From Schmidtea polychroa (Eukaryota): 60,000 nt of DNA. The first letter of the stretch is position 1; every line of letters begins with the position of its first letter. The stretch spans positions 32,056,001-32,116,000 of the forward strand of contig CM097885.1 of the NCBI GenBank assembly GCA_044892525.1, given 5' to 3'. The notes under the pieces are model-generated. The model saw only the letters and a program-made list of their open reading frames with translations, was not told where the DNA came from and ran no database searches. This document shows, piece by piece, positions 1 to 53,515 of this stretch. The translations under genes were made by a program, and so were the position numbers.

Positions 1-158
1 ATGTTAACCTTTTTCTACAGTCATTTTCATCACTTTAAAACTAAATTATAAGTTTGTTTATAGATTTTCTTTGTTAAATTTGCATGTCATTTGCATTTAT
101 GTTGCAATTAATAAAGAGAAAAAAACAAATCTGACTAATACATTTATTAAATATAACA

Positions 159-569
159 TTAAAATATTTGTGAAAGTCTAGCAGACATAATTTTCCAAAT
201 AGGAGAATATACATCATTATTATCAACTTTATATCCCTGGATTGCAATTGTTATATACCAATTTTCATTTTCTTTGAAAGCGATTTCATCAAAGGAATCA
301 TAAAATCTTGCATATTTATTGTTGAACCATGCATGTTGATTACACGATAGATTCGAATCTATCCGTTTAAAAACATCATCAATAGTTTTGACATCAATCA
401 TTGAAAGCGTGCCGGATAAGAATTCAAATTTAGTTGGAATTAGCTTGACTGGTGCAACCAATTTCATATTGATTTCTTCTTTCAAAAAATACATTTTGTA
501 GTTGTGGAACATTTGAACTGGTTGTACCATTTCTTTAGGTTTTTCGGTGCTTGAAATTTTCTTGGTCAT
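159..569 (-). CDS. Polinton hypothetical protein, 136 aa; possibly OB-fold ssDNA-binding protein
   Basis: ATG-initiated ORF in the element; beta-strand-rich C-terminus (WYITIAIQGYKV...PIWKI). Function is a guess. Confidence 0.55.
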   Translation of the reverse strand: MTKKISSTEKPKEMVQPVQMFHNYKMYFLKEEINMKLVAPVKLIPTKFEFLSGTLSMIDVKTIDDVFKRIDSNLSCNQHAWFNNKYARFYDSFDEIAFKENENWYITIAIQGYKVDNNDVYSPIWKIMSARLSQIF

Positions 570-917
570 CGTGAATAATGAATAAATTTAAATGTTACAG
601 GGTTTTTATACCTTTGACTCATGCCTATCAACCAATCAGATTATAGCATGTCTTTGTTTAAATTGCATTCAAAATGCATTGATGTTGCATTGTCACATGT
701 TCTATTTACAGATTTATTATTAATGTTTAAATTATTACATGTTTTGATATATGTACAGATTTATTATTAATATGTTTCATTATTATTAATGTTTTTACTA
801 TTATTACTATTCATATTTCTATTACTATTACTATTACTATTATTATTATTATTATTTCAAATATAAAACACAATAAAACACAATAAAAAAGATAAAACAC
901 AATAAAAAATACATTTA

Positions 918-1331
918 TTAATAACCCAAATCTACAATCTTGGAGTAGTGAAACCTTCTCAGAGTTTTCACTAACTCCCATTCGACATATCGCCGATATC
1001 GATCGGCGCAACATGAGCATCCGATGATGCACTGGTACTCTGGCTCCATTTGTTTGATGGTTCTGTTAATCTTTATATCCCACAGAAACTGGTGAAATAC
1101 ATCCATGATTCGAATTTGAGTCGCATAGAATATCAGATCTGGAATGATCTCAGGTTCGCGATCCTTGATAATTTCAATAATTTGAGGATAATAATATTTT
1201 ATCCTTTTTATCATAACTTCTAAATATTTCTCTAAAATAATAAATAGTAAATAATGTGAAAAAAAAATTTTAAATTTACCGGAATCGTCGATATCTTTCA
1301 TGAGGGTTGCAGAGCTTGGTAATTTGTACAT
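918..1331 (-). CDS. Polinton hypothetical protein (~121 aa) with predicted 48-nt intron 1232-1279; Cys cluster CIIGCSCC
   Basis: ATG at 1331; G|GTAAAT donor and TTTTAG|AG acceptor remove an in-frame T-rich stretch. Confidence 0.6.
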   Translation of the reverse strand: MYKLPSSATLMKDIDDSGKFKIFFSHYLLFIILEKYLEVMIKRIKYYYPQIIEIIKDREPEIIPDLIFYATQIRIMDVFHQFLWDIKINRTIKQMEPEYQCIIGCSCCADRYRRYVEWELVKTLRRFHYSKIVDLGY

Positions 1332-1404
1332 AGTGTTGAAAAAATGAATTCTAAACAAAAACCGTTTGTTTAAATCAATCAATAACCAATTAGAAATTAA
1401 CCAA

Positions 1405-1842
1405 TTAGAAATCGACCAATGAAATTATCTCATTTCGAACATTGTCAACAAATTCTCTATACTCCAAATTTCTCAACCCCAACATGACAACCTTTCCACT
1501 AGCAAACACGTTGACACATATAGGGTTATATTTTAATAGTCTTAGTGCCGGAAACAATTCCGGTTCAAACATACAATCACATTTTTTCGACATGTTATAT
1601 AGATTGATACTATGTCCCATATCCATAGTAACGGTAATTGATTGGATTTTAATATTATTTATTCGATATTGTAATTTATTAATATCCAAAGGTTTCTTAC
1701 ATCCCATGATTCTGCATTTACCAGTCTTGAAAAATATTATCGGATATTTCCCACTTCTATCGATAATTTGCTGGGGTTTCCCTGGTGGGAACCTCATATT
1801 CGATACATCAAAATTTCCTCGATAATTTATATTTGCTAACAT
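1405..1842 (-). CDS. TATA-box-binding protein (TBP)-like protein, 145 aa
   Basis: Second repeat IKIQSI...FEPELFPAL...VNVFASGKVVMLG matches TBP FKIQNM...YEPELFPGL...LIFVSGKVVLTG; first repeat keeps IIFFKTGKCRIMG. Confidence 0.85.
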   Translation of the reverse strand: MLANINYRGNFDVSNMRFPPGKPQQIIDRSGKYPIIFFKTGKCRIMGCKKPLDINKLQYRINNIKIQSITVTMDMGHSINLYNMSKKCDCMFEPELFPALRLLKYNPICVNVFASGKVVMLGLRNLEYREFVDNVRNEIISLVDF

Positions 1843-1941
1843 TATTAAATCATTTATGAAAATTAGTCTTTATATACAAATTGAGCACGAGTTCATTAAA
1901 TCATCGAATATAAACAAATACACATTTATAAAATATTTGAA

Positions 1942-2568
1942 ATGGAATTAAGAAATGATGCTGTATACCAAATCGTTGGTCCGAGTGGTAGTGGAAAAAC
2001 ATTATTTGTTTGTAAATTACTAAAATCCAATTTATTCAAATCAAAATTCAACAGGATTTATTGGCATAGGGGTGCTGATGAAGAACATGGATTAACTCAA
2101 TCAAGTTTCTGTAAATTAAAAAACATGAAAATAGTAAAGGGATTCGATAAAAACTGGTCCAGCCGATTAAAGAAAGGCGATGTCATTATTATCGATGATT
2201 TGTATCAAGAAGCTAATAAAGAAAAAGATTTTAATAATTTATTTACAAAGATTAGCAGACATGTCGGTGTAACAGTTATTTTCATAACTCAAAATCTATT
2301 TCATCAAGGTGGGGCACATCGAACACGTAATTTAAATGTACAATATTTAGTCATTTTCAAGAATCCTAGAGATGCAACAGTGATTGATTTTCTTGCACGT
2401 CAAGCATACCCTAACAATCGTAATTTTCTTATCAGTGCATTTCAAGATGCTACAAAAATACCTCATGGATATATATTTCTTGATTTCACACAACAATGTC
2501 CCGATGATTTACGTGTAAAAACAGATATTTTCAACCCAAAAGGTGCCATGGTTTATAAACAAAGTTGA
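1942..2568 (+). CDS. DNA packaging ATPase (A32/FtsK-HerA type)
   Basis: Walker A GPSGSGKT, Walker B IIIDD, SRH...FITQNLF, FKNPRD motifs. Confidence 0.93.
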   Translation: MELRNDAVYQIVGPSGSGKTLFVCKLLKSNLFKSKFNRIYWHRGADEEHGLTQSSFCKLKNMKIVKGFDKNWSSRLKKGDVIIIDDLYQEANKEKDFNNLFTKISRHVGVTVIFITQNLFHQGGAHRTRNLNVQYLVIFKNPRDATVIDFLARQAYPNNRNFLISAFQDATKIPHGYIFLDFTQQCPDDLRVKTDIFNPKGAMVYKQS

Positions 2569-2586
2569 AAACCTCTATGAATAATA

Positions 2587-3120
2587 ATGTTTCTAAAAGC
2601 AAGGGTGAAAAATATTAGGAAATTAAGAAAAGGTATTAGAAAGACTATTAAAGTTCCAAAGGTTCCACCAACAACTAGTTATACACCATCTAAAAAACTT
2701 GTAACTGAAAATTTCTCTGCAATGAATCTTATTTCGAAAAATCCTAAACCTAAACGTAAAACCCGTAAAACCCGTAAAACCGGTAAAAAAGTAGTTAAAA
2801 ATCATCGCAGTTTTCCATTTTTTAATGCATTGTTAAAGGCTCCGAGTATGAAAAGAATGAATATATTGCAATCATTCCCAAATTTTGTTGTCGATGATTT
2901 ACTCAATATTATACTTAAAGTAGTCAAAGGCAAAATTAAAATCAGTAAATCAAAAAAGCATTTATTGAGCAAACATAGGAAACCTTTATTATCTTTAGTA
3001 AATAATAAAAATCGTAAGCAAATGAGGAAAATTATATATAAACAACAAGGTGGATTTATTGGTGCCTTGATACCTCTGGCATTATCATTATTAGGTGGAG
3101 TTGTAGGAAATCAATCATAA
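2587..3120 (+). CDS. Basic virion core protein precursor with adenovirus pX-like C-terminus
   Basis: Very K/R-rich; ends QQGGFIGALIPLAL, similar to adenoviral pX GGFLPALIP and an adenain-type cleavage site. Confidence 0.7.
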   Translation: MFLKARVKNIRKLRKGIRKTIKVPKVPPTTSYTPSKKLVTENFSAMNLISKNPKPKRKTRKTRKTGKKVVKNHRSFPFFNALLKAPSMKRMNILQSFPNFVVDDLLNIILKVVKGKIKISKSKKHLLSKHRKPLLSLVNNKNRKQMRKIIYKQQGGFIGALIPLALSLLGGVVGNQS

Positions 3121-3123
3121 ACA

Positions 3124-3351
3124 ATGGGTGCTAATCCTTCATTGCCCGACATTAAATTTAATTTTAAATCTTCTTGTTGTAATGGAGAAGATTTGGACGA
3201 ACCCAGAAGACGAAGCCGGTTTCGGTGGAGTGGCAAAATTAAACAAAAGAGTTCCGAATTCGAAAAAAGAAACCCAGAAGTGGTTATCAGATCAGCTTGC
3301 GTACAGTTTGAACAAACCAATGCGGAAAAGATTTCCAACAAGAGCGTATAA
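3124..3351 (+). CDS. Small putative N-myristoylated protein overlapping the integrase start in another frame
   Basis: ATG 3 nt after upstream stop, good context (ACAATGG), MGANPS motif, SSCC pair. Confidence 0.5.
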   Translation: MGANPSLPDIKFNFKSSCCNGEDLDEPRRRSRFRWSGKIKQKSSEFEKRNPEVVIRSACVQFEQTNAEKISNKSV

Positions 3352-3569
3352 AACATTTGGTATTGACGATTTATGGCAAATGGATTTGATGGAGATGATA
3401 CCATATTCGAAAATTAACAATGGGAATAAATATATTTTAACATGTATTAATGTATACAGCAGGTTTGCACGAGCAATACCAGTCAAGGCAAAATCTGCAG
3501 AAGAAATGTCCAAGGCAATTAATATTTTATTTAAAGATGGACATCCTAATAATTTGCAAACAGATTTAG

Positions 3570-3646
<77 letters not shown>

Positions 3647-4276
3647 TTAGGTAAAGAATTCTACAATAGCAAAGTTAAGCAAATCCTCGATAAACTGAAA
3701 ATAAATCACTACTCGGTACATTCTCAATACAAAGCTGCCCATGTTGAAAGATTTAATCGAACATTGAGAGATAGATTAAAGAAATTGTTCGTGCATCAAG
3801 GTAATAAAAAATGGGTAAATGCTTTACCGAAAATAATAACAAGTTATAATCATTCATCACATCGAGGACTGAATGGATTGAGACCGGTTGATATTACATC
3901 AAAAACACCATTATCTAAAAAATCTGTAAAAATTGCAAAACCTAAATATAAAGTCGGTGACCATGTTAGAATTAGTAAAATTAGTGCATCACCATTTATT
4001 AAAAATTTTGATACAAATTGGAGTGATGAAGTCTTTGTAATTTCAAAAATAAATACTAAACAGAATCCTGTAATGTATGTCATCAAAGACAATGATAATA
4101 ATATTGTACAGGGGAAATTTTATGAGCAGGAATTACAAGTCATTCCTCCCCCAAAAGTATTTAGAATTCAAAAAATATTGAAAACTAAAAAGGTCGGTAA
4201 GGATAAACAATACTATATCAAATGGCACGGTTATCAAAACCCGTCATGGATATCGTCAAAAGACCTAGTAAAATGA
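3182..4276 (+). CDS. Retroviral-type DDE integrase with C-terminal chromodomain; intron 3570-3650
   Basis: WQMDL, QTDLGKEF (restored on splicing), VERFNRTL, YYIKWHGY...SWI; ATG at 3182. Confidence 0.93.
3570..3650 (+). other. 81-nt GT-AG intron made of (ATT)n microsatellite
   Basis: TTAG|GTATT(ATT)n TTAG|GTAAA; removal deletes the poly-Ile tract and restores DLGKEF. Confidence 0.85.
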
Positions 4277-5277
4277 ATTTTTATATTATTTTACCTAGCA
4301 ATAGCTGTCCACTTATTCATCCAGATAATAAAGCCAGCAAATTCAGGGTCAATCTTCAAAATCCGATATATTTGGATAATAGCTGGGAAGTTGCTCTGTT
4401 GGATTTTACATTTGTATACCAAGCCTTTCCATTTTATAGTAAGGCTAAAATTGGATACAAAAAGAATGAGTGGCAGGATAGATTATTGTCTATGATCATT
4501 GATAATGCAGATGATGAAGTTCGGTTGTCTAACTCAACTGATCCAGCTGTGAAAATGTATATTAACCATTCATATATAGTAGTTGAATGTAAACATTATC
4601 CTTTTACTGTAAAATTTGATAGTTTGGAAATGGCAAAACGATTGGAATTAAAAACCCAAAGTCATAAAGTTCTTTCCGATAAATTCACTATGCTACGACC
4701 GGGATATTCCAAAACTGTACAGCGATTTGAACCAATTTTATTTACAGTTTCATATCCGGGTATAACGTCTGGTACATTTGAGTTCAAAGATAATTTATAC
4801 ATTTCGAAATTGGATGAATTACAGACATATTTAAAACAAAGTGGTTTATTTAAATCATTGGAAATATCAGACAGATTCAAATTCAGTTTGAATCCCGAAT
4901 TTACTGAAATTACTTTTGATGCAAATCTAATAAAAACATTAGGATTATCAAAAGCAACATATGCTCAAGATGATCAAGGTACCCTAGCTCCGAAAATAAT
5001 TAAACTTCACCAACAAATGTTCATCTATAGTAATATTGTTGATCCTGTAATTGTTGGCGATTCTTTGGTCCCACTCCTGAAATCTGTTTGGATTGAAAAA
5101 TATGAACATGATGAAGTAGTCAATATAAATATCGATAATCCCATGTATTTACCTGTGTCAACCTCATGTATAAACAATATAGAAATAAATATACGTGATG
5201 ATTCTGGTAAATTAATCGCATTTCCAAAAGATTCAAAAACTCATTTAACATTACATTTTCGTAAAGTAGATGGCTAA
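4273..5277 (+). CDS. Minor capsid protein (penton-like)
   Basis: MNFYIILPSNS...DNKASKFRVNL...WEVAL start and MFIYSNIV...VGDSLVPLL...IRDDSG...LTLHFRK end; ATGA overlap with integrase stop. Confidence 0.85.
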   Translation: MNFYIILPSNSCPLIHPDNKASKFRVNLQNPIYLDNSWEVALLDFTFVYQAFPFYSKAKIGYKKNEWQDRLLSMIIDNADDEVRLSNSTDPAVKMYINHSYIVVECKHYPFTVKFDSLEMAKRLELKTQSHKVLSDKFTMLRPGYSKTVQRFEPILFTVSYPGITSGTFEFKDNLYISKLDELQTYLKQSGLFKSLEISDRFKFSLNPEFTEITFDANLIKTLGLSKATYAQDDQGTLAPKIIKLHQQMFIYSNIVDPVIVGDSLVPLLKSVWIEKYEHDEVVNINIDNPMYLPVSTSCINNIEINIRDDSGKLIAFPKDSKTHLTLHFRKVDG

Positions 5278-5635
5278 TTCGGATATTATAAGTATGTATA
5301 GTGGTAGCCAATCTGGCGGTGAATTACCATATTTTATTGGTAAACAGTACGGATCAGGATGGTTGAGAACAATTGGTAGATTTGCACTTCCTATTCTTAA
5401 ACGTATTGGTAGTTTTGGTATGAAAACTGCTAAAGATGTTATTATGAATGAACAGAAAATATTACCATCTCTAAAATCAAATGCTTTAGCAGAATTAGGG
5501 AAAGTTTTACCCGGGGTTGCAGGTATGTTTCAAAAACCAGCTCCAGCTCCAGCTCATGCTCCAAAACGTAAAAGACATGGAATATCACGTATAAACAAAC
5601 GAATGAAAGGCCATGGAACTATATTTGCAAAATGA
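5270..5635 (+). CDS. Small structural protein, pVI-like (cleavage motif plus amphipathic helix)
   Basis: QYGSG followed by WLRTIGRFALPILKRIG; basic C-terminus; lies between the capsid genes. Confidence 0.7.
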   Translation: MANSDIISMYSGSQSGGELPYFIGKQYGSGWLRTIGRFALPILKRIGSFGMKTAKDVIMNEQKILPSLKSNALAELGKVLPGVAGMFQKPAPAPAHAPKRKRHGISRINKRMKGHGTIFAK

Positions 5636-6854
5636 TTTGTGGTAAATCTGAATTATGTATATTTGATAGACCGTCGCCCCAGGCTGTAATAGAATTTGGG
5701 GCGTTTGAGGAAGTTTTTCCAATGAATTCAATTACTGATAGTAGAAATGATATAGAGTTTTATATTAATGGTTCGCAAACTGAATATTTAGATTTGAACG
5801 ATACTTTATTGACTGTTCAGATCAAGGTTATAGATAAAGATAAAAAAGCTTTGGGTGATGCTGCTGATGCAATACCGAACAATTTCATGTTTCATACTCT
5901 TTTTAAAGATGCTGTGTTGGGATTTAATAATATCAAGATTGAAGGTGGTAATAATACATTCATTCACAAGGCTTTGATAGAAACTATTTTAAATTACAAT
6001 TCCGATACTAAAAATACATGTCTTACTCCAATGGGATATGCTGCAACCGACGATGAAAGAAAAAAGTGGATTAAAGGCTCAAAAACATTCACCATGTGTT
6101 CATCGTTACAACTCGATTTTATGGATCAACCGAAATATTTGCTTCCAGGAGTTAATGTCCACATTCGATTGAAAAGATCCGATTCTGCACTAACTCTTAC
6201 TAGTGCTACAGGTGCACCAATATGTCAATTAGTTGATGCAAAATTATTGGTGAGAAGAGTTCGAGTAGACCCCTCAGTATTAGCTGGTCATCAATTGGGT
6301 CTTAATTCAAAACATGCAATTTATCCATTAAAACAAAGGAAATTGTACAATTTGCTATTGCTAAAGGTGCTTCATCATTCTATAAAGAACAAATATTTGG
6401 TGACAGAAGAATGCCTAATTTTATTCTGATAACATTTCAAAGTGAAGCACAATATAATGGATCATATACTGCGTCCAGCTCAATTTTCAAAAACTTTGGT
6501 GTTACATCATTGACTTTGTCGAAAAATACTGATTATAGAGAAACATATATTCAAGATTTCGAGAATGACAATTACTGCGCGACATATATGCAGAGTATTG
6601 TTAGAAATCTCGGTTATTTAGATAAAAATTTGAATTGCGGAATAACACTAGAAGAATTTAAAAGCAAATACCCATTTTTTACATTTGTTTTAGCCCCTGA
6701 TTTTGATTTAAATCAAAGTCAATTACCTCAAAATGGAAATTTACGACTGGATATAAAGTTTGCAAAAGCTATTACTGAACCAGTACATGTTATAATATAT
6801 GGAGTATTTGAAAATGAAGTTCAAATTACTGCAAATAGAACAGTGTTGGTATAA
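5632..6854 (+). CDS. Major capsid protein (double jelly-roll) split by one frameshift at A-run 6330-6333
   Basis: KSELCIF, IEFYI...YLDLNDT, QPKYLLPGV, GNLRLDIKF...VIIYG motifs; adding one A joins the two ORFs (YPLKTKEIVQFAI...RRMPNF). Confidence 0.88.
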
Positions 6855-7266
6855 ATGTATACAGAAACACAAAAAGTTATCATGGAGTAAGTTGTTTTTT
6901 ATACTCTGGATTTATTTAAATAGTTCTGTTCAGGTCAATAAAATCGGAAAACAGATATTGGGAAATGAATTTGTTGGAGTTTTTCCTCTTGATAAAATTC
7001 CATATTTGAGCAATAATCAAGCAATAATCGTCAATACTCAATCGTCTCATCTTGGTGGAGAACATTGGATAGCTATATATGTGAAACCTGGTAATATATT
7101 CGTGTTCGATCCTATGGGTTTCTATTACCCAGCTTTGTTGATATCAAAACTACAAACAATGGGAAAACCTATTGTGTATAATAAAACTATGTTTCAAAAT
7201 CCTTTGACCCAAACATGCGGTCAACATTGTTTAGCTTGGTTATTGTACAAAAAATTTGATGTTTAA
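6855..7266 (+). CDS. Adenain-like cysteine protease; predicted 37-nt intron 6887-6923
   Basis: Catalytic GEHW, FDPMG, Q...CGQHC; ATGGA|GTAAGT...AAATAG|T gives MDSVQVNKI in frame. Confidence 0.88.
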
Positions 7267-7324
7267 AGAAAAAAAATGTTTAATAAATTTGATGTTTAAT
7301 AAATGTATCCTTTCCTTTGTTGTT

Positions 7325-7358
7325 GTGTTATTATTATTAATATTATTATTATTATTAA

Positions 7359-7407
<49 letters not shown>

Positions 7408-7485
7408 ATTATTAATATTATTATTATTGTGAAAAATATTATTATTTTTAATTAATTTTATTATTATTCTAATAAATATTATTAT
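7325..7485. repeat. (ATT)n-rich low-complexity tract
   Basis: Direct reading. Confidence 0.9.
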
Positions 7486-7769
7486 TTGTAACATAAAGAC
7501 TGCCTTTGCATGAGGCATGCACAGTGCAAGTTAACAAAGGCATGACTAACAAAGGCAGTCACATGTAATTCTGACTGATTTACATTACATACATGCATGC
7601 GTGTGATTGGTTGAGAGAGTAAAATATTCAATGTATATGTGTGTGTGTCTATATTCTCATTGGCTGGGACAGGAAAATATTCATTCTCTTTATAAACATT
7701 GACAAATCTAAAATTTGTCACAATTATTTCAAAATTTTTCAAATTTCAATTTCAATTTTAAAAATCTAA

Positions 7770-8441
7770 ATGGCTAACAATAATAAAAATGGAATTCTAA
7801 GAAATCTTTTGACGACAATGGGTAATTTATTTTATTTTATTTTATTATATTTTATTTTATTATTTTAGAACCATTCGATTGGTACGATGTAACGGAAGAT
7901 GACTCGATATTAACAGTGGATAAGATCTTCGGTAAATTTATTATTATAATTTTTAATAAATTAATTTTTTTTCAATTCAGAAAATGCTTCAAATAGCGAC
8001 GATGATGTCGTCTTTATCGGGGAAAGTAATGCTCCTAATAAGATCTTTGGTAAATTTATTATTATTTTTTTATTAAATTATTTTTTTTTTCAATTCAGAA
8101 AATGTTTACAATAGCGACGATGATGTCGTCTTTATTGGGCAAACTGATGCCCCTAATTATGCCCCTAATTATGCCCCAGTTCTCAAAGAAAAAAGTAAAT
8201 TTTATTATTATTTCTATTAAATTAATTTTCATTTCAGAAAATGTTTTAAATGTTGATATTGACGAAGAAGAAATTAATGTCCTCGCATCGGATGATGGTG
8301 AAATCTGTGAGAATGATGGGCAAATCTCATCGGATGATGATCAAATCTCAGAGAATGATGGGCAAATCTCATCGGATGATGATCAAATCTCAGAGAATGA
8401 TGGGCAAATCTCTGAGAATGATTCCGACATGGAATCAAAAT
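7770..8441 (+). CDS. Multi-exon acidic protein with repeated SIM-like motifs (exons ~7770-7821, 7869-7931, 7981-8048, 8099-8194, 8238-8441; 3' end unresolved)
   Basis: Four phase-1 GT-AG introns give a continuous MANNNKNG...EPFDWYD...SDDDVVFIGE...SDDDVVFIGQ...EEEINVLASDD...; further donor GTAAG at 8442. Confidence 0.7.
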
Positions 8442-8549
8442 GTAAGAAATATTTATTTTTATATATATATTTTGTTTTTTATTTATATGTTAAATTTGTA
8501 ATAACTTATTTAAATATTTTGATAAAAAACTTTTTTAAATATTTTAATA

Positions 8550-8870
8550 AAAATTATGATGAAACTTCTGAAGAAAATGATTTTATGATTTATAATGAAA
8601 ATATACCGAAAAATTATGAAGAAAAATGATTATATGTTTTATAAAGAAAATGATGAAAATATGACGAAAATTATGATGAAGAAAATTATGAATTTATGAT
8701 GAAGAAAATAGGATGAAAATCAATTATGATGAAAATGATTTACAACCAAAATTATGATGAAAATGATTTATGATGATATAATGAAAATGAATTATGATGA
8801 AAATTATTTATACCGAAAATTATGAATTTATGATGAAAATGATTTATGACCAAAATTATGATGAAAATGA
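8550..8870. repeat. Degenerate tandem repeat (AAAATTATGATGAAAATGATTTAT-like)
   Basis: Direct reading. Confidence 0.7.
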
Positions 8871-9044
8871 TTATACTAAGTTTCTGAAAGTTATTATTAT
8901 CAAAATATTTAAAAAGTGATTACAAATTATGGTTATAAATCCTTGTAGTTTGCAATGTGCATCTACAATAGTTAAAATAATAATAATAATAATATTAATA
9001 ATAATAATAATAATAATATTAATAATAATAATAATAATAATAAT

Positions 9045-9594
9045 GTAGTCTACAGTGAGCATGTAGCTACATAGTAGTCTGCAGTGAGCATGCAGCTACT
9101 TTTCTTTTATATAATAATAATAATATATAAATAATAATTAGACCCCGTCTACAGTAGTTTGCAGTAAGCATGCAGCTACATAGTAGTCTGCAGTGAGCAT
9201 GCAGCTACTTTTCTTTTATATAATAATAATAATATAAATAATAATAATAATAATATAAATAATAATAATAATAATATATAAATAATAATATAAATAATAA
9301 TAATAATATATAAATAATAATCAGACCCTGTCTACAGTAGTTTGCAGTAAGCATGCAGCTACATAGTAGTCTGCAGTGAGCATGCAGCTACTTTTCTTTT
9401 ATATAATAATAATAATAATAATAATATAAATAATAATAATAATAATAATATAAATAATAATAATAATAATATATAAATAATAATATAAATAATAATAATA
9501 ATATATAAATAATAATCAGACCCTGTCTACAGTAGTTTGCAGTAAGCATGCAGCTACATAGTAGTCTGCAGTGAGCATGCAGCTACTTTTCTTT

Positions 9595-9636
<42 letters not shown>

Positions 9637-9662
9637 TATAAATAATAATCAGACCCCGTCTA
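9045..9662. repeat. Array of paired palindromic TAGTCTGCAGTGAGCATGCAGCTA-type units separated by (AAT)n
   Basis: Four higher-order repeats, eight palindrome units including variants. Confidence 0.9.
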
Positions 9663-9903
9663 CTAAAATCTCTCTAATATTCTATCGAATATATTAACCT
9701 ATTTTCTATAATGATTTATCATCATTTGTTATTTAATTCAAATGAACTATATAACAAATGATGATAAATCCTTGTAGAAGTAACAATTAGTTTTCTATAT
9801 AGAAAAAAAAACAATAAAATTTTAATTTTATTATTTAACAGGTATACTATACCCGAACTATTGTCAAACATCAATTGGACATAGTGATAAATGTCATAGA
9901 ACA

Positions 9904-12900
9904 ATGACAAAATATTACCGAAAAAAGTTTAATTCGGTCAACTTTTTTATATGCCCCAAATGTGTAACGAGCGAAAAAATAAAATATAGGGAATTTTTTA
10001 ATAAACATCATAATCACTTAGGGCAATTTTCGATATCAAAAAATGTTTTATTTAAAAAAATAAATAAAAAATTAAATAAAAAAAAAAATTAGAAAATAAT
10101 TTACAAAAAAACTTACAAAAAAATTTAGAAAATAATTTACAAAAAAATTTGCAAAAAAATATTAAAAAAAATAAAAAAAATATTATTAAAGATTCAAATA
10201 TTAAAAAAGATGCTATTAAAAAAGATACTATAAATATTATTAAAAAAGATATTATAAATATTAAAAAAGATTCTATTAAAAGACCTGCTGGTTTAATTAA
10301 AAATTGCATTCCTAATAAATTATCGCGACCTGAAGTGATAGTCATCAGCAAAGATGAATGTGTAGCTTCAACATCGTTTACACACCAAGCACCCATTACA
10401 CAACACGCACCCATTACACAACAAGAAGTGATAGTCATCAATGATGAATGTGTAGCTTCAACGTCTTTGAACATATGCCAAATAGGCGGCTCTTTGTTTG
10501 AACCTATGGTAGAATCCGATTTGAACGGATCGCGTAAAACTTTAAGATTTGATATTAGAAATCAAAACTTAGTAAAAATAGCCCTAACATCAAAAATTGA
10601 AGATAGATTAATACAGGAAATAGAAAAGATGGGCAATGTAAAAATTCAATTCACAATTTTAATTAAATTTGAAAAAGATGGGGAGATCCGGGATAATTAT
10701 TTTTCGAACAATGCTCAAGTTTTTACATCAAACTTTATAAACGAGGGGGTGAGCAAATTAAATGAAAAGATTGAGCAATTCACCTATTTAGGAAGCGGGT
10801 GGCGAGTAATGAATATTTTAGAAATAGATTTTATTTTAACGAAATACGCACCCGTCAGTAGATTATCCGGACATAGCTATATAAAAACCCCATCAGCATT
10901 AAAATTAAAACATGCAATAATTAATGTAAAAAACAACGACCATAAGTGCTTCTTGTATAGCATTCTTGCACTTTTAAAAAGAGAAGAAATAGGTCGTAAT
11001 CACCAAAGAGCCGCCAAATATATAGAATTTTTACCTCTATTAAATTATGACGAAGACACTGATTGCCCGATGAGGCTATGCAACATTCCCAAATTTGAAA
11101 GAAAAAATAGAGATTTAAACTTGAGCATAAACGTTCTGTCTTATAATCCAGCCAGTTCTGATTTAGATATTTCTGAGGATTATGTAGCTCACCACCCTCA
11201 TCTTAATATAGTACATCGCTCCAAGGTTATAGACGGTATACCAATTTATTTATTACTTTTGAGTAATAAAGATAAATATCATTATACAGCCGTGACAGAC
11301 TTGGACAAATTAATGAATTGTCATGAAAATGAAAATGTAAATGTTCAAATAAGGTGTAACTGGTGCCCACATTGTTTAAATGGCTTTAGATATAAGAATG
11401 CTTTCGATCAGCATGTTGCTCTATGCTGTAAAAATCAGACTGGCACAACTTTGTATACACTTCCTAAAAATAAAGATTTATTATTCACAGATTACGCAAA
11501 AACAGTTACACCTCCCTTCGTAATTTATGCCGATTTTGAATCGGTTTTACCAGAACATGAAACATATCATCAAATACATTTACCCATATCAGCAGGTCTT
11601 TTATTAATTAATAATTATACACACACTAAATTTTATTATTATTTTTTTGGACCTAATTGTATTTTGGATTTTTTGAGGAAAGTGGAGGAAATTGCTGTCA
11701 CAATTGTCCTGCCATATTATGATCTTGAAGGTCGTAAAGGTATGTCTACTTTGTCATTTGCTCAGGAGCGTGCCTTTCGATCTTCCACTATTTGTTATTT
11801 GTGTAAAAAATCTATTATTAATCCTGTGAGAGATCATTGCCATTTTACAGGTAGATATGTCGGAGCGGCATGTAGGAAATGCAATGTCTCTCGCAGGATT
11901 AATAAATTGTTACCTGTTGTCTTTCATAATTTACGAGGCTATGACCTCCACCATATTTTAAAACATGGTCTCAGTGATTTTCCCCTTTGGGAACTTAATA
12001 TTATACCTACCTCTACAGAAAAATTTATATCTTTAATTGCATATATTAACAAATTGCCTGTTCGTTTTATTGACAGCATGCAATTTGTTAATTGTTCTTT
12101 AGCAAAAGCTGTGAAAACCTTAACTACTTTTCCTTTGACTTCGTCTGTCTTTCAAGGGTCGATGATTCACTCTAAAGGTATCTTTCCATATAATTTCGCC
12201 ACTTCTTTAGATGTTCTTGAATCGACTTTAGAATTACCTCCTATTTGGTCTGATGTTACGGAAGATCAGTACGCTGAGGCTCAACTAATTTGGAATCAGC
12301 ATAACTGTAATAATTTGTTAGATTATATGTTAATCTACCTAAAATTGGACGTATACCTCCTCGCAGATTATTTTCAGCAATTCCGCGGTAAGGCAATTGC
12401 TTACAATGGTCTGGATCCTCTTAATTTCTACGGGATTCCCGGTATGTCATGGGCCTCAGCGCTTATGACATTAACGGAACCCATAGAACTTCTGCAGGAC
12501 ATGGAAATGTATAATTTCTATGAGGGAGGTATCCGGGGTGGGTTAACATTTGTTAACAAACATTACACGGCTACTTCAGATGATACAGAATTATTGTACA
12601 TTGATATAAATAATCTGTATGGTTGGGCTCTTAGCCAAAATCTTCCGTATGGTGATTTTTCTTGGGTGAATAATAACTTGAATGATGTTTTACTTGAATG
12701 TATGAACACGGATATTGATAACCTTCCATATGGGTATACTATGGAGGTCGATATCGATATTCCGGAATGTGTGCATGACTTTTTGAATGATTTTCCGCTT
12801 GCGCCGGAAAAGTTGTGCCCGCCTAATTCAAAAGTTGAGAAGCTTATGCTTACGCATTGGCCAAAGAGGAACTATGTTCTTCATTGGAGGCTTCTCAAAT

Positions 12901-13898
12901 TGTATATAGAATTAGGTGCGGTTGTTGTAAATATTCATAGGTGTATAAAGTTTAAACAAGGACCTATCTTTAAATCCTACATAGACACCAACACCACTTT
13001 ACGATCTCAGTCTACTAGTGAGATATATAGGGACTTGTTTAAATTGTATAATAACTCTCTTTACGGTAAATCGGTTGAAAATTTGAAAAAAAGAATGAAT
13101 TTGAGGTTGTGTAATTCATCCGAAAAGATGATAGTATACTCCTCAAAGCCGACTTTCAGAAAGTCCATAAGAATCGATAACGATCTGATTGCGGCACATT
13201 TGGAAAAAGATGTGATTTGTTTAGACAGACCTAGCTACATTGGTCAAACAGTACTAGATCTATCTAAACTGCGGATGTACCAGCTCCAATATATTGATTT
13301 GGAGAAGTACAGACGCCAATATAAATGTATCATAAATATTATTGCCGGTGATACCGACAGTTTCTTTTTGGAAATAAAAAATTTAAAATTAACAACTTTA
13401 TTACCTCAGATGATCTCTGATAATTTATTGGATACGTCAAATTACGATCCAACCCACCCCTTGTATAGTAGGAACCTTGACTCGGTCATCGGGAAGTTTA
13501 AAGATGAGAGCAAGGGATTAGGGTATTCTGAATGGGTTTTCTTACGCCCTAAATGTTATAGTCTTTTAGGTAGTAAGGAAACGGTAAAAGCGAAAGGGGT
13601 TAAATTACCAGGGACATCAATAAATCACGAATCATATCTAAATTGCTTTCATTCAAATCAGGTGATTTCTGTACCGCAGACTAGAATAGGTACTAGAAAT
13701 CACCAACTTTTTACTTTTAAAAATTCGAAAATTGCCCTAAGTAATAATGATGATAAGCGCGCGTGGCTAGGAAAAAACTTAAGTTACGCATTTGGGCACT
13801 ATTTAGGAGTTGACGAATTAAGCGAATATGATGAGGAATTCGGTCCAGCTCCAAGTCCCAGTTTTGACGACAGCGAATGGGACGAAGATCAAATTTAA
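9904..13898 (+). CDS. Protein-primed family B DNA polymerase with endonuclease VII-like insert; frameshift in A11 run 10078-10088
   Basis: YADFES, DHCHFTGRYVGAACRKCN, FHNLRGYD, YIDINNLYG, KLYNNSLYGK, GDTDS, LRPKCY. The PolB frame has no early ATG and joins the 9904 ORF (CPKC...HHNH) if the A-run gains one A. Confidence 0.93.
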
Positions 13899-14118
13899 AT
13901 AGAAAAAACTTTATATTTTTGATTTATAAAAACTTGTATAGTGATTTCATGATTTATAAAAAATTGTATAGAAACTTTTATTTAAAAACTTGTACAAAAA
14001 CCTGTATATTGTATAAAACTTGTATTTATATATACATATTCAATAAAATTTTTAATCAGATTTTTTAAGTATTTGGTGTTTTATTATAATTTTTTTATAT
14101 TTAATGGTGATTTTTATA

Positions 14119-14255
14119 TAGTCTGCAGTGAGCATGCAGCTATATGTTTTTTTATATAGTCTGCAGTGAGCATGCAGCTATATGTTTTTTTTATATAGTC
14201 TGCAGTGAGCATGCAGCTATATGTTTTATATAGTCTGCAGTGGGCATGCAGCTAT
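14119..14255. repeat. Four tandem copies of TATAGTCTGCAGTGAGCATGCAGCTATA palindrome
   Basis: Same unit as 9045-9662; fourth copy has GTGGGCA loop. Confidence 0.9.
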
Positions 14256-14296
14256 ATCAATGAAATAATAATAATAATAATATTAATAATATTAAT

Positions 14297-14333
<37 letters not shown>

Positions 14334-14341
14334 TTAATAAT

Positions 14342-14387
<46 letters not shown>

Positions 14388-14465
14388 CTTTAAACAGGTT
14401 GCAAAGGGTACTAGTCATGCTTATTATTGTTATACCTTTGATGGTTACATTTTGAAAGCTCTATT

Positions 14466-14897
14466 TTGATTTTTAATAAATCAATATGTGTTTGTCCGAA
14501 TACAGCCAAGTTGATGGATATTTTATATATTCTCGATAAACCAAAATGGTCAAAGCATCCAGGAAAAAGAATATCTCAAAGATTGGAGAATTTAGAAAAC
14601 AGTTATGAACTAACATTTGAATATATACAAAATATAAAAATTAAATTGATTGATCATATTGAGGTTTTCAATAACTCTATTACTGAAAATAAAAAGAATA
14701 TGAAGATTATTGATAAGAAGCATGATTATTTGTTAAAAAAGATTGAATTATTATTAAGAGAAATTCAAACAATCAAAGGATCAATAGAATATCTGAAAAT
14801 CAATTCAACGTTACCAATTTCTAACAATAATGCTGCGAATAGAAGTGCATCAATATTTAGTTTACCTTTGTTAATTTTACATTATTTTATTGTTTAA
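14466..14897 (+). CDS. Hypothetical coiled-coil protein with hydrophobic C-terminus; start uncertain
   Basis: 143-codon ORF with heptad pattern, followed by AATAAA. Confidence 0.45.
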   Translation: MIFNKSICVCPNTAKLMDILYILDKPKWSKHPGKRISQRLENLENSYELTFEYIQNIKIKLIDHIEVFNNSITENKKNMKIIDKKHDYLLKKIELLLREIQTIKGSIEYLKINSTLPISNNNAANRSASIFSLPLLILHYFIV

Positions 14898-15022
14898 ATA
14901 AATGTATGTTTTGTTGATTTGTTGAGCGTGACCAGTACCCTTGTGAGCATTACCCATAGGGGGACAAAATATTTTGTCGGATAGACTCAGAGTATATAGA
15001 CTCGGTGTATATAGATTAATAC

Positions 15023-15112
<90 letters not shown>

Positions 15113-15236
15113 GATATATGGCTCATTCGAAAGGTCTTGGATTGAGCTTTAAAATGAGCTATCGATTATTAATTTTCGTTGGCGGGAACTTTGAAAAAAT
15201 TAAAAATAAAATAATAATATTTTTAAAAATAATAAT

Positions 15237-15900
15237 ATGACCTTGATGAGTCATCGCGATGACTCATATGACCTTGGGAATGACCTTGGATGAGTCATGT
15301 GACCTTGAAAATGACCTTGAGTCATAGGATGACTCAGATGACCTTGAAAATGACCTTGAAAATTTTGATGAGTCATCGGATGAGTCATATGACCTTGAGA
15401 ATGACCTTGATGAGTCATAGGATGAGTCATATGACCTTGAGAATGACCTTGATGAGGCATAGGATGAGTCATATGACCTTGAAAAAAATTTTCAAGGTCA
15501 AATGAGTCATACTATGAGTCATATGACCTTGAAAATGGCCTTGATGAGTCATACTATGAGTCATGGTCTTTGTTTCAATGACCTTGATGAGTCATAGGAT
15601 GAGTCATATGACCTTGAAAATTTTTTTTCAAGGTCAAATGAGTCATACTATGAGTCATACGACCTTGAAAATGACCTTGATGAGTCATGGTCTTTGTTTA
15701 AATGACCTTGCGAAATTTTTTTGACCTTGATGAGTCATATTATGAGTCATATGACCTTGAAAATGACCTTGGTGAGTCATCGGATGAGTCATGGTCTTTG
15801 TTTAAATGACCTTGAAAAATTTTATGAGTCATAGGATGACTCATGTTCTTTGTTTCAATGACCTTGATGAGTCATATGTCTTTGTTTAAATTTGACCTTG
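15237..15900. repeat. Subterminal array of TGACCTTG and TGA(G/C)TCA motifs, likely within the Polinton TIR
   Basis: About 25 copies of each motif by manual count. Confidence 0.9.
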
Positions 15901-15995
15901 AAAAAAAAATGTACTTTTAGACTTAGAATATTTTTGAAAATCTTACCGACGGGGGGGGGGGGGGTACTGTGCCAGCGGTGCCCAATCCATCTACT

Positions 15996-18030
15996 AAGGA
16001 TATGACACTTTTCAGGGTTTATCCTAAGACCCACCTTTCCAATTTTGTCCAGCACTTCATTTAAAACTTCGTAGCGATAATTGATCGTTTCTATAAATAT
16101 CAAAATATCGTCTAGGTATACTGCCGCATATCTCGTACTCATTAATACTTTTCCCATCAGTTCCTGAAACGTACCTGGTGCCGCTGCTATTCCAAATGGC
16201 ATTCTGTTAAAACAGTATTGCCCTGATTTGGTTGAAAACGCCGTTTGTAACTTTGATTCATCTTCTAATTCTACTTGATAATATGCATTTCCAAGATCTA
16301 TCGAACTGAAATACTTTGCTGCACCCAATTTATCTAACATCTCTGCTATATTCGGCATAGGGAACGCCTGTCTGTTACTAGGTTTAATTGCCTGAAATCA
16401 AGGCATAATCTGATATCTTGCTTTTCTGTCTTCCAGGCGCATATTAATAGAGTGTTCCATGGCAAATTAAACTTTTTGATAATATTGTTTCCCATAAGTT
16501 TTTTATCGCTTCATCTATTTTACCTTCCAAGTTGACTGGTTGTCTCCAAGGTTTAATATTTAAACAGTTTCTATTTTATGCTTCACCTTTGTGTAGCCAA
16601 TATCCCATTTATCAGCCATAAAAACATTTTGATTCTTTTATATAATGTTTAGTAGTATCGAGTTATTTATCTTTAAAGTATTCTTTGTTCTTTGAAATAT
16701 GTGCTCTTGCTTCGTTTTCTTGACCTCTTCTACTGACTACTTTAATTGTATACCAAATTGTTTTTGCAACTCTATACCACCAATTACCTCTGGAGTCTTA
16801 CTATCGTAAACTTTACCCTTCGTTTCCTGCCATTTATTCCTATTTCTAATATTGTCTTACCTTTCCTTTCTAAAACACTATTATTTGCACATCTCAATGT
16901 TTTAGTTGTTGTTGTTAGTTCTACATCTTTAAGTTTTTCAATTTTGCTCCAACTCATGACATTTACTGTAGCTCCTGTATCTTCTGCTCTTGTATTCTAA
17001 TAGTTACACTTGGTCGGCTTTGCATTTTATCATAACTAATAATATCATTTTTCCATTCATCTAATGTGAGTATTTGTATTTTGTCTCTTTATCTTTCTGC
17101 AAAATCCTTTTTTATGAATCTGTTTACTTTCTTTATTACATTATTTTCCTCGTCCGTTACCTCTCTGAATCTTTCACATCTTTTTCTATAATACATGATA
17201 TTTTACTTTTATTATAATAATTAATAATTTGGGAGTCAGCATCGCTGTTTAATACACTGCCCCGACTATCTCCTTTTTTATCGGGGCTTTGATATTTGGG
17301 TATTCACTGAATTTATCTTCTATTCTTTCATTCATCACTTGGTTCGTCTATGAATGCTACGTATCTATTGTCTCCTTCTCTTGTATCCTTTCTCATTCCT
17401 CGATAACCATTCCTTGCGTCGTATCGATCGTGTTGTCTACCAAAAGTCTCATTGATTCTCCGATATCTCATTCTCTCCATATTTGTACAACAATCTGCCT
17501 CTTTATGTCCTCCCAAGCTACACCTCATACACCTTATTTTTTGACAATCTCTTCTCACATATCCCGGGGTACCACACGCATAACATTCGACTACCTTTCT
17601 ATACATCTGTGGACACTGACTTCTTATATGTCCTTGTCTTTTTGTTAATATTGAAATCTTAAATGTTAGTTTCTTTCTGATAAAAGATATTAAAAGACTA
17701 GTTACGAACTTTTGTCTCTTATCAGTACTATTTTGGAGACGCGAAAGTTTCTCTTTGCACCAGGTAAGCATACTATATTGTTGAGTCAACTTTATTGCAT
17801 ACTTTCTCTGGTACACTGAATATCACATCACTTGCTTTTTAACTTGGTCACGGAGTTCGAAGTTTGCTGAAACTTTGCATATCGTCGTATCTGTATATAT
17901 AAAACTTTTATTGTTGTTCCTTTAAAAACAATTTCGAGAGACGGGTGACGCTTGTAGCTGAAACCGTCTGGAGTCAAAGTTGAGCTGCACCAACATGTGA
18001 ATTCACATTCAATAGTTACCATTGTGTCAA
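15996..18030 (-). mobile_element. Decayed Ty3/Gypsy LTR retrotransposon (gag zinc knuckles, RT), interrupted by the Polinton
   Basis: RT motifs YFSSIDL...RMPFG...YLDDILI...NPEKC; CYACGTPGYVRRDC and CMRCSLGGHKEADC at 17328-17816. Confidence 0.88.
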
Positions 18031-19800: not shown

Positions 19801-21679
19801 ATGGATAAATACGTAACTAGCTTTAAAAGAAAATCAAATGAAGCTGAAGCTGAAGCAGAAGCAAAGAGCGAAAATAAAGAAGAAAATTTCATAAGCATAT
19901 CTTCACAAATTAGTAAACTTAAATATAGAAAATATGACCCAGTATACTTATCATTTGGATTTACATATAAGATTATTAATGGAAAAGAGCATCCATTGTG
20001 TTTATTGTGTATGAATACTTTGGCCTCAGACAGCATGAGGCCAAATAAGTTAAAACGACATCTGAAAAAGTACATGGTGATCACGTTGGTAAGACGAAAG
20101 AACTTTTCAAAAAAAGTTAGAAAGTTTAAGTAAACAACAAGAAATGTTTCTAAAGACCATGTCTATATCACAAAAAGCATTGCTTGCGTCATATAAAGTT
20201 TCTTATAGAATTGCCAAATGCAAAAAACCACATTCGATAGGTGAAACTCTTGTGTTACCTGCAGCCATTGATATGATAGAAACTATGCTTGGAGAATCAT
20301 ATGCTGACCAACTTAAAATAATCCCCCTTGCAGATAACACGGTTGGAAGACGAATATCAGATTTATCCGAAGATCTTTGCGACCAATTAATAGAAAAAGT
20401 AAAACTATCTTCTTTCGCATTGCAAGTAGATGAAGCTACTGATGTTATTAAGGATGCACACGTGATAATATATGTAAGATATGTTGTTGAAACCGATATT
20501 AAAGAAGACATGTTGTTCTGCAAACCTATTGAATTTAATACTACAGCAAAGGAAGTTTTTAAAATCATTGATATTTTTTTTAAAGAAAATGGCATTCTAT
20601 GGGAGAACTGTGTTGGGCTATGCACAGATGGAGCTCCATCCATGGCTGGAAAAAACGCTGGTCTACAGGCACTAGTTCGAAAGGTGGCTCCTCGTGCAGT
20701 TTGGACACATTGCATGATTCATAGACAATCACTTGTATCAAAAAATATGAATGAAGATCCCCTGGCAGTATTTGAAATTGTTACAAGAGTTGTAAATTTT
20801 ATTAAAAATAGCCCATTAAGAGCAAGGATTTTTGCAAAATTGTGTGATGACATGTGTTCAGAATATAGATCACTTCTATACTATTGTGAGGTACGATGGC
20901 TTTCACGTGCTAAAGTACTTTAAAGGGTGTTTGAGCTAAAAGATGAAATCGCTATATTTCTTAGTGATAATAATAGAGACGAAGCACATTTGTTTTTTGA
21001 TACGAAATTCCTTGTTAAACTTGCGTATTTAGTTGATATTTTTCAAAAACTTAGTATTTTAAATAAATCAATGCAAGGGGCTCAATTTCATACTTTTACG
21101 CAGAAAGACAAGATCACTGCATTTATCAAAAAAATAGAACCGTGGATAATATTTTTAAAAAATAATAACTTTGACATGTTTCCAACTTTTAAACTTACCT
21201 GTCTCGCTGAAGAAATAGAAGAAAGTAAAATTTTTATTAACAATCATTTGACAAGCCTACAGAAGCAATTTTCGTTGTACTTTAAGGATCTAGACATGTC
21301 CAAATATGAATGGATTAGAAATCCATTTATGATTGAGGAGTATAATGATTTTAACCTTACGACAGCAGAACAGGAAATGATTATTGATTTATCTAGTGAT
21401 AGCACATTAAAGCAGATGTTTTATGATGTAAATAATATTGTTACATTTTGGCTAAGAGTAAAGGACGATTTTCCCACTTTGGCAAATAAAGCTTTAGAAA
21501 TTTTATTGCCATTTGTAACATCTTATTTGTGTGAAACTGGCTTTTCTACAGTAGCTGTTCTTAAAACGAAGCATCGATCTCAATTAATGATAGAAAAGGA
21601 ATTGAGAACCGCGATTTCTTCAATGATACCACGATTTGAGAAGATTTGTGCAGGAAAACAAGCTCAAATATCGCATTAA
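19801..21679 (+). pseudogene. ZBED5/Buster-like transposase with frameshifts near 20070-20110 and stop at 20921-20923
   Basis: BED finger CLLC...LKRHL, FALQVDEATD, CTDGA, HCMIHR, VRWLS, YLCETGFS. Confidence 0.92.
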
Positions 21680-33521: not shown

Positions 33522-34741
33522 TGTTTAATTATAACTTCAAACCAACATTAATGTTTTACAAACAAAAGATATAATAAATTTAATTAAATAAATTAAATAA
33601 ATTGTTTGTTGGTATTTAAAAATATTTTAACATATTACTTAAAACAATCAGTAGACACTTGGTAACAAATATTTGTTAATTATCTTTTTAATTATAGCAA
33701 ATTGGAATTATTTCCTTATTAATATTTAGGAATACGTTAAGAAAGTAAATATTAAATATATAAGTAGTAAATAGTAAGGACTCCAGCGCACTTTCAAGGT
33801 CATGGAATATCAAGATCAAATATAGACCAATCGAATCATTTATTTTTTAAATTAATATTTTATTTAATTACTTCTTTTTAATTTTTTTTCTTTTTAATTT
33901 TATTAATTAATTATTTTATTATGTTTTATTTTAATTACTTACGCTATTTAATTATTATTATTATTTTTTTTAATTTTCTTAATTAATTATTTTATTATGT
34001 TTTTATTTTAGTATTATTTTATTTATTTATTATTATTATTATTATTTTTTTTTAATTTTACATTTACATTATATTCTAACAAGAGGTAAATTATAACAAT
34101 AATATTTCAATTTGAATAAAATTTTAATTAGTAATTATTTAATTTGAATAAAATTTAATCATATTAATCATATGGGCGAACTCGAGAACGGGTAAGAATT
34201 TTTTTATACAGTTTTTTTTAGAAAATAGAGCACTAGTTACTCTTTAGTTACTTTTAAAAAGTGAAATTTCACTGCTGATGTCTAGAAATCACTCTTTTAA
34301 TAGAGTGAAGCCTGGTCAGTCGAAAAATTTCACTTCTATATTGATATACAGTTGGAAACAATCTAAGATTATTGCAAGCACGGTTAGCGAGAAAAATTTA
34401 GTAATTTACTAAACACATTTCTCTACTATTTTATCTCGCATAGAAGCAGTATTTTCTCACTGCAAACAAATTTTGTACTTTTAATCTAATCAAAAGGTAA
34501 TTTTGCAGTATTATTATAGATACCCACATACATTTGTGCAGTGTCAATTCGATAGTAGCACTTACTTTATCGAAAATTCTAGTACTGCCTCACTCATAAG
34601 CTAAACATATGTTTGAACACTGCTGCTCTTCATATATTGAGACAGTTAACCACTTGATAGTATCTTTTTATATCAGAACATTATTACTTAAAGTAAATTA
34701 ATAATAAAATCAATTTATTTAAATTTCATCAAGTTGCCGTC

Positions 34742-52026: not shown

Positions 52027-52596
52027 TTAATTACTCGGGATTCGAGGTCGGACTGGGGTTGGGTTAGGATTTGTCAGTGGCATTTCTTGAGGATTTCTGT
52101 TCGAGGTTACTCTTATTGATGTCGAGATTCTGCATTTATTTCTAACTTCGTAAATCTTCATGATTATTAGTAGACATAGGAGGAGGGTTTCTGCGATCAC
52201 CACATATATGAGATAATGGGTGTCATTGATTTTGGGAGGTATTTTTGGCTTTTCTACAAGATTTTCAAAATTCTCTTGTTGCATTTGTTGTTCCAACTGG
52301 TCGAATTGTTGGATTTGTTCGAGGATTTGTTTGTTTATCATTTTACAAATGGGATTCTTTTTACACATTGTTTGGATGTTGTTGATGTGTGATCGGGTTG
52401 ATTGAATGGTTTGGATGATATGGATTTTTACTGTCATAGGGTATGTGCATTGGCCGGATTCTCGTTTAGGTTCTTGATTTTGATTTCGGTAATCTCGTAC
52501 GATTTTCGGTTGGGCGTTTACTTGTTTGTTCTCCGTCAGAATCATCAATACCGTCATTGTTATCATCATCTCGCCTCGCATGATACTATTATACAT
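52027..52596 (-). CDS. Small type-I membrane protein
   Basis: N-terminal hydrophobic segment, Cys plus coiled-coil ectodomain, TM YLIYVVIAETLLLCLLIIM, Pro-rich tail. Confidence 0.75.
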   Translation of the reverse strand: MYNSIMRGEMMITMTVLMILTENKQVNAQPKIVRDYRNQNQEPKRESGQCTYPMTVKIHIIQTIQSTRSHINNIQTMCKKNPICKMINKQILEQIQQFDQLEQQMQQENFENLVEKPKIPPKINDTHYLIYVVIAETLLLCLLIIMKIYEVRNKCRISTSIRVTSNRNPQEMPLTNPNPTPVRPRIPSN

Positions 52597-52640
52597 TCAT
52601 TATTATACATTCATTACAATTGGTTTTAGTGACCCTTAAT

Positions 52641-53348: not shown

Positions 53349-53515
53349 ATCTGTAATATGTACAGTTAATGGTGCGCTATAGTGCGACTTATACTTATGC
53401 ATTTATATAAAATTTTAATAGTTCGGGTTACAGTCCCTTGAATACTTTTACAATACTTTAATTTTTTTGTTTGGGATATACGTCCCGATTTTTGTTTTTA
53501 TCTTTTTATTCACCC

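Follow-up and report, generated by a model that had tools for sequence, protein, structure and literature searches.

Positions 1–15995 of the window (the whole 60-kb stretch of DNA analyzed) belong to a Maverick/Polinton, of which they form the right-hand part. Its left end precedes window position 1, which places the terminal inverted repeat (TIR) comparison, the 6-bp target duplication and any mirror array outside the analyzed DNA. The element encodes a protein-primed PolB together with an rve integrase, a packaging ATPase and a C5 protease, the genes by which Maverick/Polintons are recognized. These genes and the features at the right end are as follows.

1405–1842, minus strand: short TBP-like gene (PF00352, E = 1.6e-15)
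1942–2568, plus strand: A32-type packaging ATPase (Pfam match above the curated cut-off)
3182–4276, plus strand: rve integrase with chromodomain (Pfam E = 1e-5, below the curated cut-off)
5632–6854, plus strand: putative major capsid gene, two ORFs in this copy, identified by position alone
6799–7266, plus strand: adenovirus-type C5 protease (Pfam match above the curated cut-off)
10506–13898, plus strand: main ORF of the protein-primed DNA polymerase B (relatives of up to 67% identity carry PF03175)
14514–14897, plus strand: final ORF ahead of the array, resembling a coiled coil and ending in a hydrophobic C terminus
14920–15236, no strand assigned: probably a repeat in its own right, of very high copy number, that contains a (TAA)32 run and separates the last ORF from the array; its limits are uncertain
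15180–15195, plus strand: CDE-N4-CHR tandem (TGGCGG, 4 nt, TTTGAA), 42 bp inward of the array
15238–15901, no strand assigned: subterminal array of 27 AP-1-type words (26 perfect), 27 NR5A-type words and 5 TCTTTGTTT words, non-coding
15902–15995, minus strand: terminal 94 bp of the element, which include a C-run; the minus strand starts with AGTAGA, the end motif (15990–15995)
15996–16397, minus strand: gypsy-type reverse transcriptase remnant, the insertion site of the element (RVT_1, E = 4e-25)

The element resembles Maverick/Polintons of the adintovirus type in its pPolB, rve integrase, A32 ATPase, C5 protease and AGT-type end, and this lineage differs from those described in carrying a short TBP. 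The polymerase ORF has no direct Pfam match at 1e-3. The putative capsid has no Pfam or PDB sequence match and is 55% identical to a 406-aa ORF that adjoins the protease in a relative (L016). Because the integrase ORF contains a microsatellite, an in-frame (TAT)25 poly-Ile expansion (3571–3646), and the putative capsid gene is split, this copy is probably defective. No bZIP, nuclear receptor or HMG domain was found among the 14 element ORFs scanned. The last ORF (14514–14897), which likewise lacks a bZIP or receptor domain match, has a tail resembling that of a membrane- or GPI-anchored protein and belongs to no confident family, and an atlas search with ORF 918–1331 gave no usable match. Several plus-strand genes are preceded by ATAAAC boxes, and a near-palindromic 29–39-bp unit tied to AAT microsatellites flanks polB on both sides (9045–9665 and 14111–14257).

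We placed the right end at 15995 because the gypsy reverse transcriptase frame of the flank breaks off at the junction (ending ...NPEKCHIL), AGTAGA stands at the junction, and contigs of organism B have loose ends with mixed flanks at 15997 and 15999. AGTAGA is a 6-bp end motif of the AGT/AG type, one base off the (AGT)2 of vertebrate Mavericks. Among the joints listed for contigs on 14400–16400, none changes strand. The array spans 95–758 bp inside this terminus, and the word 'terminal' in an earlier note on this DNA is therefore apt, the array's outer edge lying ~95 bp from where the element ends.

In the interval that separates the last ORF from the array, the depth bin 14936–15002 stands far above its neighbors in all four sequencing runs (the analysis of depth leaves aside 15008–15237), and many loose ends fall at 14920–14997. 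The repeat at 14920–15236 resembles non-autonomous elements of Helentron/DINE type. The CDE-N4-CHR tandem at 15180–15195, recognized by the definition in an excerpt of PMC5716687, is the sole copy in the 60-kb window (0.013 expected) and may be part of the inserted high-copy repeat or of the Maverick end.

Elsewhere in the window, a series of ORFs that lack introns, share one strand (52027–59875) and encode ankyrin, TRAF/MATH and coiled-coil sequences matches the cargo described for planarian Burro retroelements, which suggests a planarian host. Two broken transposase-like regions lie at 19801–21679, presumably hAT/Buster-like, and at 34697–36437, with a hAT dimerization match. A Pfam scan of 23 window ORFs, which could miss short host exons, returned mobile-element-type families or none, and no host gene was recognized.

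An exact count over 15238–15901 gave 26 TGASTCA words (23 TGAGTCA and 3 TGACTCA) and 25 copies of the receptor word CAAGGTCA (23 as TGACCTTG on the plus strand and 2 inverted). In 2,000 dinucleotide shuffles of the array, the means were 0.31 (maximum 3) and 0.09 (maximum 2), respectively, which upholds the earlier estimate of about 25 of each over 660 bp. The array holds 26 of the 29 TGASTCA matches in the window, where 5.1 are expected by chance, and 26 of the 27 matches to YCAAGGYCR, where chance predicts 1.1. A third word, TCTTTGTTT, which was missing from the earlier word list, is present in five copies, exclusively in the outer half; it resembles a Sox/TCF (HMG-box) site. Approximate tiling with up to two mismatches yields 27 AP-1-type, 27 receptor-type and 5 TCTTTGTTT words, ~59 in total, and the three words cover 453 of the 664 array bases. 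The receptor-type words point one way in 25 cases (minus-strand CAAGGTCA or a variant) and are inverted in the other 2. Instead of the simple alternation of two words first described, the order is mostly one of AA and NN pairs, with start-to-start distances of 12, 9, 12 and 9 bp giving a 42-bp period, by arithmetic four helical turns. Each of the six reading frames has 7–44 stops, with 86 codons as the longest open stretch, which rules out a coding repeat.

The words vary far less than the sequence between them. By hand tally, 6 of 450 core cells deviate from the commonest base, against 20 of 140 cells in spacers of equal length (46 of the 58 spacers; 12 fell outside an equal-length class). 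Spacers account for 11 of the 15 distinct changes (p ~7e-5), a value that is optimistic, as p-values here generally are, because the units are copies of each other and the independent events few. Half of the core deviations (3 of 6) are the G/C swap permitted in AP-1 sites. The TRE core TGA(C/G)TCA is perfect in 26 of the 27 AP-1-type words, which are flanked by A in 25 and by T in 26 cases and do not have the GC flank that marks Maf/Nrf2 sites. Because 25 of the 27 receptor words share one orientation, base pairing cannot explain their conservation. Within the limit set by the small number of independent events, this pattern suggests that the array grew under selection on the words while the spacers drifted, which forms part of our preferred reading.

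To identify the receptor that best fits the second word, we compared the array with published sites. The FTZ-F1 consensus YCAAGGYCR, as given in excerpts of PMC7239656 and PMC3861103, agrees with 26 of the 27 receptor 9-mers. In gel shifts with Schistosoma FTZ-F1 (37 probes; PMC8673669 supplement 4), YCAAGGTCA was bound in 7 of 7 probes, none of 4 probes was bound when the C before AAGGTCA was replaced, and CCAAGGCCA was bound in 0 of 2. That C is kept in all 27 array words, of which 24 are of types bound in the gel shifts, 1 is like an unbound type and 2 are of types absent from the probes. The single TCAAGGCCA variant fits the textbook consensus and resembles the unbound CCAAGGCCA, and it may be a lost site in a flatworm. 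A substitution test on the receptor words gave P values of 0.0015–0.025, which are to be discounted as post hoc; the test is weakened because it was made after the variants had been seen and because flatworm FTZ-F1 leaves CCAAGGCCA unbound.

The ERR site, TCAAGGTCA with T at base 7 or, in its other form, TNAAGGTCA, fits 21 of the 27 receptor words. Their variation, Y at base 1 with a fixed C at base 2, follows the NR5A pattern better than the ERR pattern. Judged by their bases, the words thus fit NR5A/FTZ-F1 well, and ERR-type binding is also compatible with them, because mouse ESRRB likewise prefers TCAAGGTCA, with T at base 7, in an excerpt of PMC8451941. The two main words are supported as AP-1-type and NR5A/FTZ-F1-type sites by their perfect matches, by cores far less variable than the spacers and by in vitro binding of the two commonest receptor types by a flatworm FTZ-F1.

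To place the array among other copies of the element, we compared contigs of four sequencing runs with positions 14400–16400. All four runs cover parts of the array, and the two runs of organism A place 41,139 and 11,035 contigs on this 2-kb stretch. The array is thus a family trait of a multi-copy mobile element, present in thousands of contigs, and is not special to this locus. Among the best 15 of 275 joints, 10 skip 59–361 bp within the array, which suggests a variable number of units; misplacement between similar units can give the same picture. The best 40 of 157 variants include 15 in the array; 8 of these have at least 10% of depth in X1 or X5, and each of the 8 either falls in a spacer or preserves the word, a pattern that is not independent of the one within the array. 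In X5, though not in X1, summed contig depth, which is not a copy number, is ~2-fold higher over the array than over the last ORF. In organism B the array is covered, with both words present, and the last ORF is little covered. One organism-B contig differs at five receptor-core positions, breaking the word if the alignment is in register; these differences may reflect a unit offset or real divergence.

Searches beyond these runs did not return the array. Of the related polB loci in metagenomes, 14 were compared and 0 had it; all 14 stop short of a recognizable terminus, and 6 have <400 bp downstream. Viral contigs contained no relatives by polB or ATPase. In a motif scan, 1 of the first 95 loci had at least five words in 660 bp (five AP-1 words), and a later set of 145 loci included none with both words in three copies and none encoding the element's proteins. 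The array was absent from the 240 loci of the motif and protein scans. Of 124 receptor-pair matches in the motif scan, 78 lie in a stop-free Gln-Gly frame and are probably collagen-like coding sequence.

The position of the array can be set against what is described for Maverick/Polintons. Vertebrate Maverick TIRs measure 46–1447 bp, and the 758 bp from the terminus to the inner edge of the array would fit within them; the excerpts giving these lengths cover end motifs and TIR lengths and mention no arrays of host-factor sites (PMC8097293, PMC8502044, PMC6431247). We found no report of a Polinton end that bears a dense array of three words in the open-licence PubMed Central and bioRxiv literature. 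Natural FTZ-F1/NR5A targets have one or a few sites, as far as excerpts of PMC7239656, PMC3861103 and PMC8451941 and the data of PMC8673669 go, and the array has 27 words.

Reiterated host-factor sites are familiar from viral enhancers, namely the bZIP-site clusters of baculovirus hr regions, the cytomegalovirus immediate-early enhancer and retroviral LTR enhancers. The likeness lies in multimerized sites, variable in number, that respond to host signals and there serve the virus's own activation. The array differs in joining AP-1, NR5A and HMG-type words and in lying in an integrated Polinton, and its activity is a prediction. Host-factor sites in viral terminal repeats are thus already known, and a dense three-word array at a Polinton end is, as far as we searched, not previously described.

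Because the sites are perfect, the cores vary little and a flatworm FTZ-F1 binds such words in vitro, a regulatory role is the best reading of the array. The earlier note had proposed a stress- or wound-inducible, tissue-selective enhancer that may also affect neighboring host genes; on these grounds a regulatory role is supported, with enhancer activity, wound or stress induction and tissue selectivity as predictions, and the effect on neighboring genes is not supported, the element being multi-copy, its flank a broken gypsy reverse transcriptase and the 23 scanned ORFs mobile-element-type families or none. We consider it probable that host factors bind the array in the element's interest, whether by an enhancer or by a replication or excision route, and put the narrower claim, that it is the element's own host-factor enhancer, at even chances.

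Under the enhancer reading, the array would be a cis-regulatory cassette near the Maverick end for the element's own use, with predicted sites for three host factors, namely AP-1 (a bZIP of Jun/Fos type), FTZ-F1/NR5A and an HMG-box protein of the Sox/TCF type. The cassette would have grown by duplication and deletion of 9–12-bp units, with selection keeping the words while the spacers drift. Where these factors are active together in a cell, dense binding might open the piRNA-silenced element from its end and thereby boost host-type early promoters built with the same words; late genes would come next, perhaps through the element's own TBP. Binding and enhancer activity are inferred here, as are the target genes and the nature of the trigger, be it wounding, stress or cell type. 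AP-1 is induced by wounding in planarians, and a search of the open-licence PubMed Central and bioRxiv literature for planarian nr5a with wound fos yielded nothing relevant. According to an excerpt of PMC8532177, planarian Polintons are piRNA-silenced and gain active marks and activity during differentiation, which fits the enhancer reading without testing it.

The words are also reused inside the element, in two promoter-like stretches.

604–664, minus strand: promoter-like stretch of ORF 159–569, with an AACAAAG word, a reverse CCAAT, ATGAGTCA and TATAAAA
7530–7700, plus strand: second promoter-like stretch, with two AACAAAG around the AP-1-like ATGACTAA and two CCAAT boxes

Positions 648–664 are identical over 17 bp to array positions 15876–15892 (rough chance 3e-4), and this reuse of an array stretch beside AP-1, CCAAT and TATA words counts in favor of an enhancer. 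AACAAAG points towards the gene in both stretches, as it points inwards from the element end. The internal AP-1 word is not above chance (1 seen, 1.5 expected). Against the enhancer reading, the window's genes near the element end face outwards, with the array downstream of them and several kilobases from the promoter-like stretches. The absence of the array from all 14 related polB loci, which stop short of a recognizable terminus, and the core differences in organism B, if in register, also count against it.

The direction of the end genes, which face away from any promoter that the array could directly serve, favors a different use of the same host factors, as helpers of protein-primed replication or excision at the end. 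This would be compatible with an enhancer role, and the element does have a protein-primed polymerase, with the array starting ~95 bp from the element's terminus. The precedent is the adenovirus ITR, where host-factor sites (NF-I, NF-III/Oct-1) near the end of a protein-primed linear genome enhance replication, as an excerpt of PMC6410123 describes. The factors there are others, however, and the excerpted motifs occur singly, inside the first 88 bases, whereas here ~59 sites begin 95 bp in and reach 758 bp. An auxiliary origin of the adenovirus type, with NF-I and octamer in the first 88 bases, is therefore not what this end contains: no NF-I motif occurs in the 60-kb window, and no octamer in the array or the last 94 bp. 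The same words also occur in the internal promoter-like stretches, a setting in which they would hardly serve replication. On balance we consider a replication or excision helper rather unlikely.

The array might also be a minisatellite that slippage and template switching built up from a palindromic seed rich in TGA/TCA by chance; if it is kept by selection, that would be for hairpins in displaced single strands, and the motif match would be incidental. It does consist of tandem periodic units: Tandem Repeats Finder reports a period of 42 with ~10 copies and 71–76% matches, and the joints that skip 59–361 bp (10 of the best 15) are as in unstable repeats. It also folds strongly as a single strand (z = −15.6 against base shuffles) and outdoes all 60 unit-order shuffles (−125.8 versus −110.8 ± 4.6 kcal/mol), which keeps a hairpin or minisatellite origin in play. 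The extra folding is due mainly to two imperfect palindromes on inverted receptor pairs, that is, one pair and its duplicate.

15445–15530, no strand assigned: imperfect palindrome centered on the first inverted receptor pair, arms of up to ~40 bases with mismatches; a second copy is centered near 15622

An Rfam search of the array gave only weak miRNA-type hairpin matches, far below the gathering score. Pairing could conserve the near-palindromic AP-1 words, but the receptor and TCTTTGTTT words are non-palindromic and mostly point one way, yet are conserved like the AP-1 words, which the folding leaves unexplained. Nor are changes spread evenly along the unit, as in a neutral minisatellite; they affect 1.3% of core cells versus 14% of spacer cells, with few independent events behind both values. 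Moreover, each of the three distinct words has a known factor that matches it. We therefore regard an incidental minisatellite as unlikely, less probable than a replication helper.

The words could instead be sites for a protein of the element itself, for example one encoded in the left part beyond the window. In favor of this, the promoter-like stretches of the element contain the third word again. In a relative whose polB is 54% identical (L017, 1839–1937), the word recurs as three TCTTTGTT alongside octamer-like words where the contig ends, in what may be a promoter or a terminus. Several ORFs also belong to no known family. Two of the three words equal host consensus sites base for base, however, and bZIP, nuclear receptor and HMG domains are absent from the 14 scanned ORFs, which makes this origin improbable. 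Least credible is co-option of this copy as an enhancer of neighboring host genes: an excerpt of PMC8097293 suggests a general precedent for Maverick sequence, and a cluster of sites this dense could influence whichever promoters lie within range, but the array is a family trait in thousands of contigs, its flank is a broken retroelement and none of the 23 scanned ORFs is a recognized host gene.

Returning to the element's own enhancer, a broader and more tentative proposal is that animal Polinton ends act as a host-read switch for exit from latency, at once a multi-input gate and a genome-wide reservoir of sites; as a joint claim we think this possible but doubtful. The gate would take wound- or stress-induced AP-1, cell-type FTZ-F1, a Sox/TCF factor and perhaps a DREAM/MuvB cell-cycle brake as inputs, and it would time transcription and terminal replication to regenerating tissue. 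Polinton ends would then behave as the enhancers of LTRs or herpesviruses do, and the element, given its high copy number, would scatter dense AP-1/NR5A clusters through the genome of a regenerating animal. With ~50 sites per end in very many copies, these clusters would form an AP-1/NR5A reservoir that titrates or redirects the factors during regeneration. Most animal Polintons are not known to form free particles or to answer to a trigger, and the array supplies candidate host factors for the waking of integrated copies.

Repeated words also occur in other sequences. In a giant-virus bin, intergenic AP-1 triplets are repeated in L020 (652–682 and 1585–1615) and L025 (2002–2032), their 12-bp spacing having been selected by the search pattern. 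A related element, L011, carries a 21-bp tandem array of other words downstream of polB (1420–2210).
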